Shown here piece by piece: positions 1 to 10,213 of a stretch of 64,000 bases of DNA. Source of the stretch: an uncultured Candidatus Saccharibacteria bacterium (GTDB taxonomy: Bacteria; Patescibacteriota; Saccharimonadia; CAILAD01; GCA-016700035). The notes below the pieces were generated by a model. That model saw nothing but the letters and a program-made list of their open reading frames with translations, was not told the DNA's origin and ran no database searches. A program made the position numbers and the translations under genes. The stretch is from NCBI GenBank assembly GCA_964535385.1, contig CAZHSY010000005.1, positions 263 to 64,262 of the forward strand, in the 5' to 3' direction. Every line of letters starts with the position of its first letter. The first letter of the stretch is position 1.

Positions 1-597
1 ATTATCTTTGGTCGTCCAGTATGAGGTGAATTTAAATGACTGCTTGGGATTATTGGCGTAGTACTTGGTATTTACACCATTGCTAATCACGAAGAGCTGG
101 ACGAACTGAAAGAGCCCCTGGCCAGCCGAGTAGCTGTGGCGATGGTAGCGGGCGACTTGATTGTAGGCTTCCTTGAGCTCCATGCCGCGACGCTTCAGCT
201 CGACTTGCACGAGTGGCAAGCCGTTGATCAGAATCGTCACATCATAGCGATTTTTGTAGCTTCCCTCCATAGTGACTTGATTGGTTACTTGGTACTGATT
301 CTGACACCAGTCGCGAGAGTTGAAGAAATCCACGAAGACCGTACTGCCATCATCACGCTGAAGCGCCATGCGATCACGTAAGGTCTTCGAGCGATCATAT
401 ATATTACCTTTGGACAGATGGTTGAGGATCTTGGCGAATTCAGGCTCGGAGTATGTAGCCTGATTATGCTTCTCGAGCTGAGTTTTGAGATTAGCGAGTA
501 AGTCCCGCTCATTCCGAATCGTCACCGGCTCATACTTCATGGCGGTGAGCTGGGTAATTAGGTTTTGCTCAAGGATTTGTTCGGATTGGGTTGTCAT
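1..597 (-). CDS. hsdR: Type I restriction enzyme R subunit (HsdR), N-terminal part; runs off the window edge
   Basis: Reverse-strand translation from ATG at 597 gives MTTQSEQILEQNLITQLTAMKYEPVTIRNERDLLANLK...VTILINGLPLVQVELKRRGMELKEAYNQVARYHRHSY...GLFQFVQLFVISNGVNTKYYANN. This is the classic HsdR N-terminal nuclease/helicase lead-in. No stop before position 1. The start overlaps the upstream ORF stop by ATGA. Confidence 0.88.
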   Translation of the reverse strand, partial: MTTQSEQILEQNLITQLTAMKYEPVTIRNERDLLANLKTQLEKHNQATYSEPEFAKILNHLSKGNIYDRSKTLRDRMALQRDDGSTVFVDFFNSRDWCQNQYQVTNQVTMEGSYKNRYDVTILINGLPLVQVELKRRGMELKEAYNQVARYHRHSYSAGQGLFQFVQLFVISNGVNTKYYANNPKQSFKFTSYWTTKDN

Positions 598-986
598 AGT
601 ATTCTTAATACCTTTTTAATATTCTCAAATGCTTTGTGCTTTTCGTCATTCGACTCAACGTCTGAACTATTTGATATAAATATTAGGTTACGGGCTACTT
701 CACTTAATTCTTGCTTTTTGGGAACTATACCAAAAACAACAAATACCATTTTAAGGGCTATCGATTGATATTTTTCCTCTAAATCGCAACTTAATTGCCG
801 CAGTTCATCAAATGCATCTCTGGATACCTCTATGGGTAGATCATTAAAATACTTATTACTGTTATATTTTAAACGGTTCTGGACCATGCCTTTAACAGAC
901 CTAAACTGCATCAAAGGCTCAAGCATAAAGTTTTTCCCAAATAAGTAATCGCTGCAACAAGATATCCGATCATAACTATTAGCCAA
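594..986 (-). CDS. Hypothetical 130-aa protein embedded between hsdS and hsdR (AT-rich, predicted helical)
   Basis: Intact ORF with 4-nt ATGA overlap into hsdR and 14 nt after hsdS. Roughly 33% GC against ~50% for the genome. No motif I recognise. Confidence 0.5.
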   Translation of the reverse strand: MANSYDRISCCSDYLFGKNFMLEPLMQFRSVKGMVQNRLKYNSNKYFNDLPIEVSRDAFDELRQLSCDLEEKYQSIALKMVFVVFGIVPKKQELSEVARNLIFISNSSDVESNDEKHKAFENIKKVLRIL

Positions 987-999
987 TTCTCACTTAGCA

Positions 1000-2196
1000 T
1001 CACGGAAAAATCCTTTGAAGAAGAGCTCTCCTGAGGAGCTTTGCCAGCCTTAAGTTCTCACTTATGGAATCGATTTTCTCGTCTAGAGACTCTAAGAAGT
1101 CTGTGATTTTTTGCTGCTCTTCAAGACAAGGTAAATTAATTCTCACCTTCCTCAGTTCATTACTGCTAATTTCCATAAATGTTGAGCCACTTGATTTTAT
1201 CAAAAACTCCTTACGTGAATATCTTGCCCAATAATAAACAAATACGTTATTTATAGCCTTGTTAGCTATCATTGACTGAAAACCTTGATTTGTCGTAATA
1301 GGCATCTTTGCTATTGCAACCTCACCAACAGTTGCTCTACTTGTAAAGATAATTGCACCTGGTGGTAGTATTTTTGCTGACGAATTTTGAAGGCCCTGTT
1401 CCGTGATTGTTCGCTGACTTGATGTAATATATCTACCTTTCACCTCCGAAGGTGTCAACCAGGCAATTCTTCCTCCCCAGTATCCTGGGTTTGACGTATC
1501 TGGAGTCCCGCCCCCAACTACCTTGACAACACTGCCGAGTTTTTTCTCTTCCCAGTTCGGATAATTGCCTCCATCCACATCCTTAAATCGAATCTGCTGA
1601 GTAAAGATTTTTTGCATTACGCCTTTTTTGTATTGTTTCAAGAGCTCAAGTCGTTTTTCCAGTAACTCAATCTTCTTATCAACCGCCATCAGAAAATCTG
1701 CGATCTTTTCTTGCTCACTGCGTGAAGGCAGGCTTACTTTTATATTCTTAACAATTTCCGCAGAGAGATTACCCTGACCACCCTGCAAATACGTCTTTAG
1801 GATATTACTCTTATCCGCAGTCAGCTTTGAATATATGAAATATGTGTTTGCAGCGGGGCGGATACATAGTACCGCTTGATTAATCGCGCCATCAATCTTA
1901 GATATAGCCACCTGGCCACTTGTGGCACCATATAGTGCGTATAAAATATCCCCTTTTTCAACAGACTTAGCTGATGAAGCCTGAAGTGCTTCTCCTGATA
2001 TACACTCTTTTGTTTTAGAAAATGATATTTCTCCAGACTTAATAAAGGGTATTTTCCCCTCGTAAAATGATCGATTCGTCGACGTAGGGGTCCCTCCCGA
2101 AAAAGTTGTTGAAATATTACCCAGCTTCTTCAATACCCATTCATCAGTAAATTCTGAAAATCTTAATTTCGGAACAGGCTTCATAACAGCATTCAC
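1000..2196 (-). CDS. hsdS: Type I R-M specificity subunit HsdS (two target-recognition domains)
   Basis: Two TRDs separated and followed by the conserved HsdS repeats (LPSRSEQEKIADFL... and LPCLEEQQKITDFLESLDEKI). 4-nt overlap with the upstream gene. Low GC. Confidence 0.85.
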   Translation of the reverse strand: MNAVMKPVPKLRFSEFTDEWVLKKLGNISTTFSGGTPTSTNRSFYEGKIPFIKSGEISFSKTKECISGEALQASSAKSVEKGDILYALYGATSGQVAISKIDGAINQAVLCIRPAANTYFIYSKLTADKSNILKTYLQGGQGNLSAEIVKNIKVSLPSRSEQEKIADFLMAVDKKIELLEKRLELLKQYKKGVMQKIFTQQIRFKDVDGGNYPNWEEKKLGSVVKVVGGGTPDTSNPGYWGGRIAWLTPSEVKGRYITSSQRTITEQGLQNSSAKILPPGAIIFTSRATVGEVAIAKMPITTNQGFQSMIANKAINNVFVYYWARYSRKEFLIKSSGSTFMEISSNELRKVRINLPCLEEQQKITDFLESLDEKIDSISENLRLAKLLRRALLQRIFP

Positions 2197-3239
2197 AAAT
2201 CTTTCTCCTGTGGCTTTTCTTCCGTGCTGGGTTTGTTATGAATCTTCTTCACGGCTTCATCAAAGTCCGACACAAACTGCTTGTCTTGGATGGGCTGGAA
2301 CTCCCCGTACTCTTCGTGCGCTAGTTTCTCAGCTGCGGATCGACTCACTCTACCTGGGTCTTTAAGAATCTCATATTCATTAAAGCGCAAAAAAGCATCA
2401 ATCTTATCTGTCCAGTCAGCCATCTTCATAGCTATGCCACGCTCGGCTTGATTCTCGGCGTAATCGAGATACATGGTCACAATGCGATTCAGCTCACGCA
2501 ACTCATTCTCATTGAGGTAGTTCTTGCCTACCGTGATATCGCTCTTGAGAATCTTGCCACTTGGTGAATTCTTCCACGTCTTGAGTCCCATGTGTGGCTT
2601 CGTCGCATCGGCTGAGCTCGTAATAAGCTCCGAGGCAGTCTGGCCGTGGATGGCGAAGTGCAGTTTATTCTGCACAGTTGCAAAAAACTCCTTAGTGATC
2701 GGGGCACCTTTGTCATAATCAATTGCAGTCGCGTAAATATCCGTAATCTTCTGATAAAAATGCCTCTCGCTAGCCCGGATCTCTCGGATCTTCTCGAGCA
2801 ACTCATCGAAATAATCCTTACCAAAATGCGTACCGTTCTTCAGTCGTTCATCATCGATGGCAAAGCCCTTAATAATAAAGTTGCGCAACGTCTGGGTCGC
2901 CCAGATTCGGAATTGAGTAGCCTGATGGGAATTCACGCGATAGCCAACCGAAATAATAGCGTCGAGGTTATAAAAATTTACTTCTCTCTCAATGTCTCGG
3001 CTACCCTCTTTTTGAACTATCCGGAATTTCCGGATAGTTGCATCTTCGGTCAGTTCGTTGCTGGTATAAATATTCCCCAGATGTTCATTGATAGTTCGTA
3101 CATCAACATCGAATAGCTCTGCCATTCGCTTCTGCGTTAACCAAATAGTCTCGTCCTGGAAAAAAACTTCAACCTTCACCTCCCCGTCTGGAGCAACGTA
3201 GAGTAGAAAGTCCGACTTCTTCATCTCTGCCTCATTCAC
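2193..3239 (-). CDS. rhuM: RhuM-family virulence/DNA-binding protein, embedded in the type I R-M operon
   Basis: N-terminal FLLY..DGEVKVEV..QDETIWLTQKRMAELFDVDVRTINEHLGNIY...RKFRIVQKEGSRDIEREVNFYNLDAIISVGYRVNS.QATQFRIWAT is the RhuM signature. 4-nt overlaps on both sides. Confidence 0.8.
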   Translation of the reverse strand: MNEAEMKKSDFLLYVAPDGEVKVEVFFQDETIWLTQKRMAELFDVDVRTINEHLGNIYTSNELTEDATIRKFRIVQKEGSRDIEREVNFYNLDAIISVGYRVNSHQATQFRIWATQTLRNFIIKGFAIDDERLKNGTHFGKDYFDELLEKIREIRASERHFYQKITDIYATAIDYDKGAPITKEFFATVQNKLHFAIHGQTASELITSSADATKPHMGLKTWKNSPSGKILKSDITVGKNYLNENELRELNRIVTMYLDYAENQAERGIAMKMADWTDKIDAFLRFNEYEILKDPGRVSRSAAEKLAHEEYGEFQPIQDKQFVSDFDEAVKKIHNKPSTEEKPQEKDL

Positions 3240-4807
3240 TGAGTGCCCCCAAACGGCGTCTCAATTCCTAGCTCTTTGCAGTACTCCGCAATCTTTTGAT
3301 CTATTGCGATACTGTCTTTGTCCAGCTGTTTAATCTCACGCGTAACTTCCGCCAGATCAATCTCTGGCTCCTCTTCGAAGGTATCGACATAACGTGGGAT
3401 GTTGAGGTTGTAATCATTTTCTTTGATCTCGGCCAGAGTCGCGCGGTGGCTATACTTCTCGATCTCTTCGCGTTTGGTGTAGGTATCGAGGATCTTCGCA
3501 ATGTCTTCTTCGCGGAGCTTGTTTTGATTTTTACCCTTTTCAAAATGCTTGCTAGCATCGATGAAAAGTATATCGTTCGTGCTCTCGCGGCATTTCTTAA
3601 AGACCAAGATACAAGCTGGGATGCTGGTGCCAAAGAAAAGGTTGGCCGGTAGACCAATCACGGCATCTAGGTAGTTCTTCTCACGGATAAGAAACTCGCG
3701 GATATGCCCCTCGGCTGCGCCGCGGAAGAGGACGCCGTGTGGCATGACGGTCGCCATAGTGCCATTGTCATCCAGCTGGTACACCATGTGTTGAATAAAA
3801 GCGTAATCCGCCTTGGTCCTCGGGGCTAGCTTGCCGTACTGCGCGAAGCGATCATCTTGCAAGTGCCCAGCATCAGCCGACCAGTGCGCACTAAAAGGAG
3901 GATTGGCTACGATTGCTTCAAAGTGATGCTCTGTATGCTGCGGGTGCTCGAGCGTATTTTCCTGACGGATATCAAACCTATCGAAGCGCACATCGTGAAG
4001 AATCATATTCATGCGCGCAAGGTTGTATGTGGTCGGGTTCAGCTCCTGTCCGTAGAACGCATCTACATCTTCCACATATCGGGCCACACGTAGCAGTAGC
4101 GAGCCCGAGCCACAGGTCGGATCATACACACTCTTAAGGCGCTTCTTCCCACTCGTAACAAGGCGGGCCAGCACTTCTGATACTTCTTGCGGAGTATAAA
4201 ACTCGCCAGCTTTCTTACCAGCCCCGGCCGCGAACTGACCAATGAGATACTCGTAAGCATCACCGAGTACGTCGATCTTGGCGTCTTCAAGTCGGAAATC
4301 AATCTTATCCAGATGAAGCAATACGCGAGAGAGAAGCTTGGCGCGGTCAGCATTAGTACGTCCAAGGCGTGAAGAGTTTAACTCAATCTCGCTGAAGAGC
4401 TTATCGAAGTCATCTTCGCTATCACGACCCATAGTGCTTTGCTCGATGCTATTAAGATTGCGCTCAAGGTCTTCGATGAGATTTGGTGAATTTGCACCGT
4501 GCTCGGCCACGTAGCTAAAGAGCTCTGTGGGTCTTAAAAAATAGCCCAGACCATCGACAGCCTCCTCTCGGATAGCTTCGATCATCTGCTTATCTTGCTT
4601 TACATTCTCATCGAGATCGACGTATACGCGGCCATCTGGCTTCAGCAACTTGTCGGCGTATGCGTTCATTTGCTCCGAGAGATACTTGTAAAAGATAAAG
4701 CCCAGGATGTAGTCACGGAACTGACCGGCATCCATATTACCGCGCAACTCATTGGCGATGTTCCATAGTTGGGTCTGCAGTATCTTCTTTTGTTCCTCGG
4801 ACATCAC
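3236..4807 (-). CDS. hsdM: Type I R-M N6-adenine DNA methyltransferase subunit HsdM
   Basis: 523 aa. N-terminal HsdM_N helical domain (LWNIANELRGNMDAGQFRDYILGFIFYKYLSE), AdoMet motif DPTCGSGSLL and catalytic NPPF (IVANPPFS). Good RBS AAAGGAGAGG upstream. Confidence 0.92.
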   Translation of the reverse strand: MMSEEQKKILQTQLWNIANELRGNMDAGQFRDYILGFIFYKYLSEQMNAYADKLLKPDGRVYVDLDENVKQDKQMIEAIREEAVDGLGYFLRPTELFSYVAEHGANSPNLIEDLERNLNSIEQSTMGRDSEDDFDKLFSEIELNSSRLGRTNADRAKLLSRVLLHLDKIDFRLEDAKIDVLGDAYEYLIGQFAAGAGKKAGEFYTPQEVSEVLARLVTSGKKRLKSVYDPTCGSGSLLLRVARYVEDVDAFYGQELNPTTYNLARMNMILHDVRFDRFDIRQENTLEHPQHTEHHFEAIVANPPFSAHWSADAGHLQDDRFAQYGKLAPRTKADYAFIQHMVYQLDDNGTMATVMPHGVLFRGAAEGHIREFLIREKNYLDAVIGLPANLFFGTSIPACILVFKKCRESTNDILFIDASKHFEKGKNQNKLREEDIAKILDTYTKREEIEKYSHRATLAEIKENDYNLNIPRYVDTFEEEPEIDLAEVTREIKQLDKDSIAIDQKIAEYCKELGIETPFGGTQ

Positions 4808-4893: not shown

Positions 4894-5415
4894 TCAGCTC
4901 ACTTCAGCTAATGCTGAGCGGAATGCCGCCAGAGAAGAATCTGAACGCACCACAAAATACAGATCATCAAGTGACTCAACACCATGACTGAGAGCATTAA
5001 GGCCTGCTCGCACCGCCACACGGGCGGCTTCCTCGAGAGGATATCCAAAGCTCCCCGTCGATATGGCGGGTATTGCTAGTGATTTTAGACCATACTCTTG
5101 TGCTCTTTGGATCGCGTTGGCGTAACAAGCTGTCAGTAACTGCTCCTCGCGCCCCTCCTCTTGTCCATATATCGGCCCCACCGTATGAAAAACATAGTTT
5201 GCTGCCAGAGCAAACCCGGGGGTCACTTTTACTTCCCCTGTCTGACAACCACCGAGGGTGCGGCAGTAATCTTTTAGCTCTGGCCCGGCGGCTCGATGAA
5301 TAGCACCATCCACCCCACCACCACCAAGCAAGGTATAGTTTGCGGCGTTTACTATGGCGTCGACTTCTAGCTGAGTAATATCGGCCTGAATGATATGTAT
5401 ATTGGCTCGAGACAT
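4894..5415 (-). CDS. Macro-domain protein (O-acetyl-ADP-ribose deacetylase, YmdB/MacroD-like)
   Basis: IIQADITQLEVDAIVNAAN..LLGGGGVDGAIHRAAG...AIPAISTGSFGYP are macro-domain motifs. Confidence 0.85.
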   Translation of the reverse strand: MSRANIHIIQADITQLEVDAIVNAANYTLLGGGGVDGAIHRAAGPELKDYCRTLGGCQTGEVKVTPGFALAANYVFHTVGPIYGQEEGREEQLLTACYANAIQRAQEYGLKSLAIPAISTGSFGYPLEEAARVAVRAGLNALSHGVESLDDLYFVVRSDSSLAAFRSALAEVS

Positions 5416-5487: not shown

Positions 5488-5574
5488 TGGTGCGGATGAG
5501 AGGACTTGAACCTCCACGGGGTTGCCCCCACTAGAACCTGAATCTAGCGTGTATACCAATTTCACCACATCCGC
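5488..5574 (-). tRNA. tRNA-Leu(CAG), 87 nt with long variable arm; CCA encoded
   Basis: Reverse complement GCGGATGTGGTGAAATTGGTATACACGCTAGATTCAGGTTCTAGTGGGGGCAACCCCGTGGAGGTTCAAGTCCTCTCATCCGCACCA. 7-bp acceptor stem, anticodon stem CTAGA/TCTAG with loop TTCAGGT (anticodon CAG), GC-rich variable arm, T-loop GGTTCAAGTCC. Confidence 0.85.
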
Positions 5575-8174: not shown

Positions 8175-8336
8175 TTAGTCCTTTTTGCGAGACTTAGAGG
8201 CGCTACTCGAAACCCTGCCCAACAGAAAAACGCCCTTGCCACTAACCTTCATACGGTTAGTGGCGTATTTTTTGCGATCACGAGCTTCGGCTTTAATGAG
8301 ACTCTGGGTAAGACGAGATTTTTTAGTGCGTGCCAT
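8175..8336 (-). CDS. Small basic protein, 53 aa (MARTKKSRLTQSLIKAEARDRKKYATNRMKVSGKGVFLLGRVSSSASKSRKKD); not in the ORF track because it is under 60 aa
   Basis: My own translation. Sits 24 nt upstream of the DUF360 gene on the same strand. A TATAAT box about 13 nt upstream of the ATG suggests a leaderless or short-leader mRNA. Lys/Arg-rich like a ribosomal or nucleic-acid-binding protein, but I cannot match it to a family. Confidence 0.35.
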   Translation of the reverse strand: MARTKKSRLTQSLIKAEARDRKKYATNRMKVSGKGVFLLGRVSSSASKSRKKD

Positions 8337-8737
8337 ACGTAAGCGCATTATAACCTGGTCGTAAGTAGGATAAAAGCTTTAGGAGACGTGATCTAAGTCA
8401 CAGACATGTTCGTACGGTTTTCGGTATAATAATAACCATGATTACCGCATAATGGAGGAAATGGATATGACACTTACAAGATCTGACCTGCAAGAGATTA
8501 AGGCACTCTTTCAGGAAAATAATGCCGAGATCTTCTCGGTTATTAATGATTTAGCCTCACATACTGATAGCCAGATACAATAACTACGTCAGGATATAGA
8601 AAAGATGCGAGACGATATTACCGACCTACGTGTCGACCTCACTAATCTGCAGTCAGAAGTCCGCACTGGCTTTGCTTACGTCAACCAATCAATCACTAGC
8701 CTTCAAACTACTCAAGCTCGATTGGAAGCACGATAAA

Positions 8738-10213
8738 CTAAGACGACAAACCGCTTGCTCCAACGTGCTGCTGGATAACCCTAGCTTTAGCGGCCCCGAC
8801 TACTCCACTTAAATCCGCCAAACTAGCCTCACGTACGCCTTTCACGCTGCCGAACTGCCTAATAAGCTTCTTGCGGGTGGTTGGCCCTACCCCCGGCACA
8901 CTATCAAGCCAGCTAGTAGTGGTTCGCTTATCGCGCACCGTCGTGTGATAGCTGACCGCAAACCGATGAGCCTCATCCCGAATGCGCTGCAAGAGCTGTA
9001 AGACTTTGCTGGTATGTGGCAAGGAAATAATCCGAAACTCTCCATCAATGTGTTCTTCTAGGCGACCAGCGCGCAGGCTCGGCGCATCGCGCAGGCGCTG
9101 CACGATCTGCTCATGTCGCTTAGCTAAACCAGCAGCTGGGATCTTCACGCCTAGCTCATCCAGTACCTCGGTTGCTGCCGCTAACTGCCCCTTCCCACCA
9201 TCGATGATGATTAAATCAGGCAGAGGCCAATCCTCGTGCTTGCCGGAGAAGCGCCGACGCATGGTCTCGGCCATCATGGCGAAGTCATTCGGGCCCTTGC
9301 TGCGCATTTTAAACTTCCGATATTGGCTCTGGTGAGCCGTGCCATTGGTGAATACCACCATTGAAGAGACGGCATCTCCACCTTGGAAGTTTGAGATATC
9401 GTAGCACTCCATGCGATTTGGTAATTTTTGCATACCCAACCGTTCGGCGAGACCAGTCAGGGCTTGATCCATGGCAATGTCAAAGCTCTCTTGATTACCA
9501 AACAAGACCTTGCGTGATAAGGCTTTGAGTGCCAAGTACTGATCGCGCAGCGCCGCCGCTTCTTCGTAATGCTTAGCCTTGGCAGCTCGATTCATCCCCT
9601 TCTCCAGGTCGCGCACCAGGGCTGTACTGCGGCCCTCCAGTACCATCATCAGACGGCGGATATTGGCTCGATATTCACTCACCGAGATGTCCGGTCGTGG
9701 TGCCACGCCGATCTGATGCTCGAGAGCAGATTTGGTCACTAGCTTAGAGTCCGAGAAGTATGGGAAGATCCGACGCAGTAAACGCAAAGCCTCTCGCACA
9801 AGACTGGTCGAGATGAACGGACCAAAGTAGCGGGCTTTATCATCGGCCGGTCGCCGCACGACCGTAATCTTCGGATAATCCTCCTGCACACTCACCCGTA
9901 TATAGATGAAGTTTTTATCATCCTTACCGTCGACGTTAAAGATTGGTTTGTAGCGCTTAATCAACTCAGCTTCAAGGAACAGCGCCTCAACCTCACTACC
10001 AGTCACAATCCAGTCCAGAGCAGCAATATTCTGCACCAAGATTGGCGTCTTGATATCTCGATGACTCTTCGTAAAGTACGAACGCACGCGTCGTTTGAGG
10101 ATGGAAGCCTTACCGACGTAGATAATTGTGCCGGCCTTATCCTTATACAAATACACGCCGGGCTCAGCAGGGAGCTCGGCCAGGCGGTCTTTGAGGTGAG
10201 CGGGGGCTGGCAT
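8738..10213 (-). CDS. uvrC: Excinuclease ABC subunit C (UvrC)
   Basis: N-terminal GIY-YIG (PGVYLYKDKAGTIIYVGKA...LKRRVRSYF), UvrBC-interaction region, and C-terminal (HhH)2 (VPGVGPTTRKKLIRQFGSVKGVREASLADL). Confidence 0.9.
   Translation of the reverse strand: MPAPAHLKDRLAELPAEPGVYLYKDKAGTIIYVGKASILKRRVRSYFTKSHRDIKTPILVQNIAALDWIVTGSEVEALFLEAELIKRYKPIFNVDGKDDKNFIYIRVSVQEDYPKITVVRRPADDKARYFGPFISTSLVREALRLLRRIFPYFSDSKLVTKSALEHQIGVAPRPDISVSEYRANIRRLMMVLEGRSTALVRDLEKGMNRAAKAKHYEEAAALRDQYLALKALSRKVLFGNQESFDIAMDQALTGLAERLGMQKLPNRMECYDISNFQGGDAVSSMVVFTNGTAHQSQYRKFKMRSKGPNDFAMMAETMRRRFSGKHEDWPLPDLIIIDGGKGQLAAATEVLDELGVKIPAAGLAKRHEQIVQRLRDAPSLRAGRLEEHIDGEFRIISLPHTSKVLQLLQRIRDEAHRFAVSYHTTVRDKRTTTSWLDSVPGVGPTTRKKLIRQFGSVKGVREASLADLSGVVGAAKARVIQQHVGASGLSS

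Follow-up and report, generated by a model that had tools for sequence, protein, structure and literature searches.

Gene content of the restriction-modification operon

The window, that is, the whole stretch of 64,000 nucleotides (nt) analysed here from an uncultured Candidatus Saccharibacteria bacterium (contig CAZHSY010000005.1), begins with a type I restriction-modification (R-M) operon on the minus strand, in which a small gene is placed between hsdS and hsdR. The label X is used below for this gene and its protein family, i.e., the open reading frame (ORF) at 594..986 and its homologues. X is strongly associated with restriction operons in physical terms and, judging from sequence comparison, represents a new, unnamed protein family in a known kind of arrangement. 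The best overall explanation, with a probability of about one half as a whole, is that the window carries a frameshifted copy of a conserved family that may serve as an R-M-linked accessory defence module. The genes of the operon are as follows.

3236..4807, minus strand: hsdM, methyltransferase subunit, first gene of the operon (N6_Mtase, E = 5e-112; HsdM_N, E = 5e-19)
2193..3239, minus strand: rhuM-family gene between hsdM and hsdS (Virulence_RhuM, E = 2e-116)
1000..2196, minus strand: hsdS, specificity subunit, directly upstream of X (Methylase_S, E = 7e-54)
1..597, minus strand: 5' part of hsdR, first 199 codons, running off the window (HSDR_N, E = 7e-41)

The complete HsdR protein of 943 amino acids (aa) is encoded in Logan contig L009, which is identical to the window. 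No promoter or terminator signal above shuffle expectation was detected between hsdS and hsdR, and an Rfam scan of the whole window returned nothing except one tRNA.

A preliminary description of this locus had presented X as an AT-rich ORF of 130 codons that overlaps the hsdR start by ATGA. The composition and the overlap are as described: the GC content of X is 0.337, compared with 0.402 in hsdS, 0.484 in hsdR, 0.499 in hsdM, and 0.504 in the whole window, and its stop codon TGA (596..594) overlaps the hsdR ATG (597..595) as ATGA. The minus-strand ORF (986..594, TTG start, 130 codons) also exists; its 5' end, however, was misread, and both a frameshift and a transmembrane anchor had been overlooked. 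X in the window comprises about 135 codons in two frames, coupled at both ends, and is not an intact 130-aa ORF. Its parts are listed below.

1000..998, minus strand: authentic start ATG of X, overlapping the hsdS stop TGA (1002..1000) as TGATG
932..1000, minus strand: 5' segment of X, encoding MLSENWLIVMIGYLVAAITYLGK, the N-terminal transmembrane helix of the family (tblastn; alignment with P0002-P0009)
984..986, minus strand: TTG start of the mechanical ORF call, probably not the biological start (residues 1-18 align with no homologue)
932..938, minus strand: frameshift site, heptamer G GGA AAA after a 1-nt deletion (DNA alignment with homologues)
924..926, minus strand: internal ATG, M21 of the 130-aa reading and start of the public 110-aa product P0001
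911..913, minus strand: TGA closing the 29-codon upstream frame when no frameshift occurs (a 29-aa gene is called there in L009)
594..932, minus strand: 3' segment of X, 112 codons plus stop, predicted cytoplasmic four-helix bundle (pLDDT 95.2 and 95.5)

A frameshift divides the window copy

Codons 1-18 of the 130-aa reading (MANSYDRISCCSDYLFGK) result from translating the transmembrane-helix segment in the wrong frame and can be aligned to none of the homologues, while the frame from the ATG at 1000..998 matches homologous N-termini, such as MSENWQIALTGYGVAVVTYLAK in P0002. DNA alignment revealed that one base is missing relative to the homologues (TATTTGG-GAAAAAC against TATTTGGCGAAGAAC), and tblastn maps residues 1-23 (1000..932) and 21-135 to two different frames. 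A -1 shift at G GGA AAA (938..932) restores a 135-aa protein colinear with the family, whose junction (YLGK followed by NF) agrees with the homologues residue for residue. An assembly error was rejected as the cause, since the lesion is common to three Logan assemblies from separate sequencing runs (L009, L010, and L011), including a different haplotype. L009 is 100% identical to the window, and L010 differs by eight single-nucleotide polymorphisms, all in hsdR. These eight differences (3396 nt compared) are confined to 94 nt of hsdR (window 187-280), which looks like a small recombination patch, not scattered mutation.

Gene callers divide the frameshifted gene into a 29-aa ORF and a 110-aa ORF from the ATG at 926..924, the latter being called in all three Logan assemblies; the public 110-aa model and the mechanical 130-aa ORF are thus both artefacts of the frameshift. 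As the TGA that closes the 29-codon frame follows 10 nt downstream of this ATG, termination-reinitiation is possible. Full-length X would be made in the window only through rare -1 slippage at the heptamer. Otherwise, translation would yield a membrane peptide of 29 aa, to which reinitiation might add a 110-aa domain lacking the anchor; such reinitiation would also be required for translation to remain coupled into hsdR. Unless slippage or reinitiation occurs, the deletion would break the direct translational chain from hsdS through X to hsdR. Because the anchor is uncoupled from the bundle and this chain would be broken, the window copy is probably defective or reduced to an anchorless domain, and most likely represents a recent loss-of-function or split allele.

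The heptamer has the exact X XXY YYZ form of a slippery site, is in phase with the ATG at 1000..998 at precisely the junction that yields the family-like product, and the allele is found in two slightly different haplotypes. These features would suit a programmed -1 frameshift controlling how much anchor peptide is made relative to full-length protein and, via coupling, the level of HsdR. Such recoding is nevertheless very unlikely: X homologues of other lineages are all encoded by a single uninterrupted ORF, the RNA downstream of the heptamer folds no better than shuffled sequences (minimum free energy -14.5 vs. -12.6 +/- 2.7 kcal/mol, z = -0.71), and a deletion in a G/A run creates such a heptamer by itself. 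Moreover, shifting has been weak in the systems studied when AAA occupies the A site and no stimulator is present. The lack of downstream structure and of a frameshift in other lineages led us to read the heptamer as a mutation.

X belongs to a large unnamed family

A search covering 5.8 billion proteins identified nine relatives of X (E = 1e-21 to 1e-62), one of which, P0001, is the truncated 110-aa product of the window itself; the others are 134-141 aa long, and each opens with a hydrophobic helix. An exhaustive profile search of 1.84 billion cluster representatives (clusters at 50% identity) recovered 740 proteins at E <= 1e-3 and 126 at E <= 1e-10, nearly all 130-175 aa long and alike in layout. 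A second indexed search returned 85 close members, all annotated as unnamed or hypothetical protein and without any precomputed Pfam domain. Where the source organism is given, it is mostly Candidatus Saccharibacteria, with Elusimicrobia, Solirubrobacterales, and Beckwithbacteria also represented, so that the family is concentrated in Saccharibacteria and other bacteria of the Candidate Phyla Radiation (CPR) with a patchy distribution across phyla. The GC content of X is below that of its flanks in 23 out of 23 loci compared. Nonsynonymous divergence between homologues is low (dN ~0.24) while dS is saturated, which places the protein under purifying selection. Conservation outside the genome, the absence of which had been named as a refuting condition, was clearly found, and the sequence comparison shows that X is a real gene and not a chance ORF.

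Among 215 aligned sequences, R68 is conserved in 213, followed by N111, S110, L44, L74, L106, and L132, with S71, C72, and Y78 conserved as well. The nearly invariant polar residues are therefore R68, S71, C72, S110, and N111, and the conserved motifs of the 3' segment read QNRLKY, ELRQLSCDLEE-Y, and LIFxSNS. Within the N-terminal helix, G12 and a small residue at position 19 are conserved.

X recurs beside restriction genes

A total of 68 X loci were grouped into 28 lineages (clusters at 80% identity plus four remote ones). X touches a restriction system in 18 of these, which supports the R-M-associated accessory protein that the preliminary description had supposed. Type I hsd genes, with both HsdR families represented, are the neighbours in 16 lineages; one further lineage follows a type III Res gene (ResIII and RE_endonuc), and in one remote lineage X is preceded by two N6_N4 methyltransferases and a 285-aa gene. 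The suggested co-occurrence with hsdR is likewise recurrent, X being found either between hsdS and hsdR or directly after hsdR. The short form (133-146 aa), to which the window copy belongs, typically has the order hsdS-X-hsdR with 1- or 4-nt overlaps at both junctions, and occurs beside two different HsdR families. The long form (159-174 aa) is located 11 nt to 49 nt downstream of hsdR. In at least 10 distinct lineages, X lies between hsdS and hsdR with stop/start overlaps on both sides, suggesting that in the clade of the window the three genes are translated as one coupled chain.

The partners of X are variable. Identity among short-form X follows the HsdR family (67% with the L004 type, 45-50% with the L002 type), whereas long-form members of a single cluster (>=80% identity) follow HsdR proteins that are only 26% identical. 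About one third of the lineages have no restriction gene nearby, and such solo copies lie amid AbiEii, Panacea toxin-antitoxin, TIR-like, SLFN-helicase, and MazG-like genes. The gene upstream of X also differs, being a RiboL-PSP-like HEPN gene, a 274-aa gene (L066), a 200-aa gene, or none.

A membrane anchor and a cytoplasmic helical bundle are predicted

AlphaFold2, run with a 73-sequence alignment, modelled full-length X with a pLDDT of 95.2 and a pTM of 0.83, and the soluble part with 95.5 and 0.87. Both models are entirely helical and without strand, in agreement with the helical character predicted earlier. A long helix at 4-46 is predicted to hold the membrane segment and to be followed by helices at 57-79, 84-89, 96-111, and 115-132. 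A single hydropathy peak of transmembrane grade is present, at positions 9-27 only (family-mean Kyte-Doolittle value 1.83, 19-residue window); a second transmembrane or re-entrant segment at residues 82-93 was rejected, since the family-mean hydropathy there is only ~0.4-0.9. Averaged over the family, the net charge rises from -0.49 ahead of the helix to +2.21 behind it; by the positive-inside rule, this predicts an N-out/C-in orientation. The predicted architecture of the family is thus an N-out/C-in membrane anchor joined to a compact cytoplasmic four-helix bundle.

The best structural neighbours are Lin2004 (2huj) and YppE (2im8, 2hfi); 2huj is matched with a TM-score of 0.54-0.66, probability 1.00, E = 0.06-0.08, 11-12% identity, and a root-mean-square deviation of ~4 A. 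Both proteins are soluble four-helix bundles of unknown function, while X carries an anchor. As far as the models indicate, the match to 2huj is a generic up-down bundle match without functional information.

Profile matches and rejected identities

As the preliminary description had stated, X contains no recognisable motif: Pfam, NCBIfam, and PADLOC gave zero families for the ORF and nothing beyond chance for 73 members, and a sequence-profile search of the PDB gave one chance match (E = 0.41). A real match was obtained to one profile only, phrog_7512, which comprises phage proteins of unknown function and was matched by the 130-aa reading (E = 1.6e-8), by reconstructed X (E = 4e-9), and by 34 of the 73 members (best 2.5e-14). 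This match is nearly full-length (positions 7-134 of X to 7-135 of 141), but phrog_7512 is a phage family to which X is only distantly related.

Several identities were rejected. The earlier suggestion of a HEPN, Abi, or nucleotidyltransferase fold was not upheld. The ORF matches none of the abortive-infection families (Abi_2, AbiEii, Abi-C, and others), to which the 73 members show chance-level matches only, and the absence of any beta-sheet in the models excludes a nucleotidyltransferase fold; HEPN is considered below. X shares only its genomic position with PrrC and RloC, being 135 aa long and having no P-loop and no AAA or ABC match. A DNA-mimicking anti-restriction protein (Ocr/ArdA-like) was discarded as the soluble part is charge-neutral (17 K+R vs. 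16 D+E). Finally, X is not part of an obligatory two-gene cassette, because the genes upstream of it (252/244-aa HEPN-like, 274-aa, and 200-aa) are mutually unrelated.

Possible function of X

We tentatively favour, at somewhat less than even odds, the reading that X is a mobile accessory defence module, autonomous but carried within restriction operons, and acts at the membrane. Its variable partners, the swapped R-M systems, the solo copies in defence-type surroundings, the phage-family relative, and the deviant composition all favour such a module over a fixed subunit; X probably does not serve one particular restriction enzyme in that way. The anchor with its conserved glycine/small-residue face suggests action at the membrane as an oligomer. 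X would then oligomerise through this transmembrane face, with the cytoplasmic bundle as a regulatory or interaction domain, and would act either as an effector or sensor of the abortive-infection type or by preventing DNA from entering. What X most likely does is predicted from genomic context and predicted architecture, from which we also infer its mechanism.

Several observations weigh against a mobile defence module acting at the membrane. One transmembrane helix offers little ground for modelling a pore, no catalytic motif was found in X, and Foldseek searches against PDB and BFVD gave no significant structural neighbour (best E = 0.06-0.08). With three members as queries, no relative was detected in 50,697 phage genomes (tblastn), plasmids, or IMG/VR (pattern search), which indicates that the phage branch of X is distant. 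Since the window copy is frameshifted, its activity in the source organism cannot be inferred. In two lineages, X directly follows aminoacyl-tRNA synthetase genes (L014 5477-5794, L067 7001-7420), and the same position, a housekeeping setting, is seen in L068. In oral Saccharibacteria, X is followed by a constant gene while the R-M system upstream is swapped; there, X may be fixed at the edge of a variable hot spot, with its R-M adjacency being partly positional.

The last two observations would also suit a general small membrane protein without defence function, brought next to R-M genes by insertion hot spots and hitch-hiking, as would the fact that PADLOC matched none of the 73 members. We regard this explanation as distinctly unlikely. 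A flanking-gene model fails for the lineages in which X is inside the operon and overlaps its neighbours on both sides, and the low GC content relative to the flanks everywhere, the patchy spread over phyla, the phage-family relative, and the toxin-antitoxin and Abi neighbours of solo copies fit a mobile accessory gene. A dedicated subunit or regulator that binds HsdR or Res, and either tethers or controls it at the membrane's inner face, the place of entry of foreign DNA, or restrains HsdR (restriction alleviation), is also unlikely, albeit to a lesser degree. X always adjoins the gene of the nuclease subunit and never hsdM, whether before hsdR with overlapping codons (short form) or 11 nt after it (long form), and elsewhere it is preceded by a type III Res gene or a putative endonuclease gene. 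The predicted C-in topology would place the bundle in the cytoplasm, and short-form similarity tracks the HsdR family. However, long forms of a single cluster (>=80% identity) accompany unrelated HsdR families, a sister clade lies beside the type III Res gene, and about one third of the lineages lack a nearby restriction gene; to our knowledge, type I systems in general work without an X-like protein. A wider version, in which X is a new and widespread class of membrane-anchored partners of restriction endonucleases, mainly in CPR bacteria and Saccharibacteria, serving as a PrrC-like guard with a membrane-lesion output or as a nuclease tether, is possible but doubtful. If the tether version were true, it would position restriction nucleases of type I and type III, and possibly also of type II, where DNA enters the cell and provide a molecular basis for the membrane association of type I enzymes, which is an old observation.

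We give hardly any credence to a divergent RNase toxin of HEPN or Abi type, although X is a small all-helical bundle, has one almost invariant arginine (R68), and occupies a slot known to house HEPN proteins, and a RiboL-PSP-like HEPN gene with RHVIIH/RNVIVH adjoins it in L002 and L008. The Rx4-6H motif is absent: R68 is followed by Q-L-S-C-D-L-E-E-K-Y, with no His 4-6 residues beyond it and no conserved His column among the 215 aligned sequences. None of the 73 members has a HEPN match in Pfam or PADLOC or an Abi profile match, the HEPN toxin structures 8yuf, 8xeh, 8xdj, and 7ae8 align at TM-scores of only 0.37-0.43 (E >= 2), and a membrane anchor would be atypical. The check by structure prediction that had been advised for these folds returned an all-helical bundle that supports none of them.

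Comparison with known R-M-embedded systems

The classical example of second-line defence embedded in an R-M system is PrrC, encoded in the EcoprrI operon hsdM-hsdS-prrC-hsdR (PMC12707154). PrrC and RloC resemble X in being encoded by an extra gene between hsdS and hsdR that is co-expressed with the restriction enzyme. PrrC, however, is a soluble protein of ~400 aa with an ABC-type ATPase and a C-terminal nuclease domain, whereas X has ~135 aa, a membrane anchor, and a four-helix bundle, lacks ATPase and nuclease motifs, and shows no sequence or profile similarity to PrrC. Genes of unknown function interrupting type I R-M operons have been investigated more generally, and several proved to be independent defence systems, including TgvAB and HEC (PMC11411939; bioRxiv 10.1101/2024.01.29.577857). 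TgvAB of Vibrio cholerae VPI-2 and the HEC candidates, the latter proposed by "guilt-by-embedding", are like X encoded within type I R-M operons; their proteins are GmrSD-like or carry ABC ATPase, HEPN, RelE, or NYN domains, while X is far smaller and has no PADLOC match. X belongs to this embedded class by position, as it lies on the same strand within the hsd operon both in the window and recurrently in unrelated genomes. A literature search for a described membrane-anchored R-M partner found none.

Small single-pass prophage proteins, such as lactococcal Sie2009 and HK97 gp15, act in superinfection exclusion or block injection. Compared by description, they share with X the small size, the N-terminal anchor, the AT-rich accessory gene, and the defence setting. 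X differs in that most copies reside on the chromosome within R-M operons and most of the protein is predicted to lie in the cytoplasm.

X is of interest since genes embedded in R-M operons have repeatedly been proven to be second-line immune systems (PrrC, TgvAB, and HEC). Phage defence in CPR bacteria relies largely on restriction, and CRISPR is rare there. The family is large (740 clusters), bears no Pfam, NCBIfam, or PADLOC name, and has a confidently predicted fold without an informative neighbour; together with its concentration in CPR bacteria and its R-M-embedded setting, this makes X a useful and moderately interesting candidate, defined for experiments as a 135-aa protein with near-invariant polar residues such as R68 and N111.

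Other genes near X

The window operon contains two guest genes, namely X and the rhuM-family gene (2193-3239, minus strand), which has overlapping junctions; rhuM occupies the same slot between hsdM and hsdS in the related operons of L020, L021, and L042. Just upstream of hsdM are a stand-alone macro-domain gene (window 4894-5415, minus strand, E = 4.5e-44), also found near the R-M operon in L002, and a tRNA-Leu(CAG) gene (window 5488-5574, minus strand). The R-M block therefore adjoins a tRNA gene, a neighbourhood that is a typical site of island insertion.

Between hsdS and X, loci L002 (9243-10001) and L008 (1972-2706) carry a 244-252-aa gene with the RHVIIH/RNVIVH (Rx4H) motifs and a weak HEPN_RiboL-PSP match (E = 0.004), which, on this sequence evidence, is probably a HEPN RNase embedded in the X operon. 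One clade of long-form X is always preceded by a 200-218-aa protein without a Pfam match (L015 7289-7945, L033 6328-6930, L047 6335-6937; 59-89% identity between loci). The genes further upstream vary between a type III Res gene, DUF2130, and one for an acidic protein of 586 aa, and a ParA-like ATPase follows X in L015 and L033. The 200-218-aa gene and long-form X may form a two-gene unit on a mobile element. In the Elusimicrobia loci L024 (8476-10301) and L026 (8552-10401), X is followed by an AAA_21 ATPase and DUF4276 before hsdR, with an additional SNF2 helicase between X and hsdR in L024, so that several guest modules are stacked within a single type I operon.

The L014 copy of X is C-terminally truncated (105 aa). 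The remote members P0087 and P0243 (L057, L062-L064) occur in a conserved trio consisting of a 73-aa helix-turn-helix gene, a DUF5667 gene (436-464 aa), and X, so that the distant branch of the family has a recurring setting of its own. A few genes downstream of X, a DUF2779 gene occurs in L009, the extended contig of the window (8181-9548, after hsdR), as well as in the unrelated solo locus L001 (12581-14071); this recurrence could be a coincidence or indicate a further linked gene.

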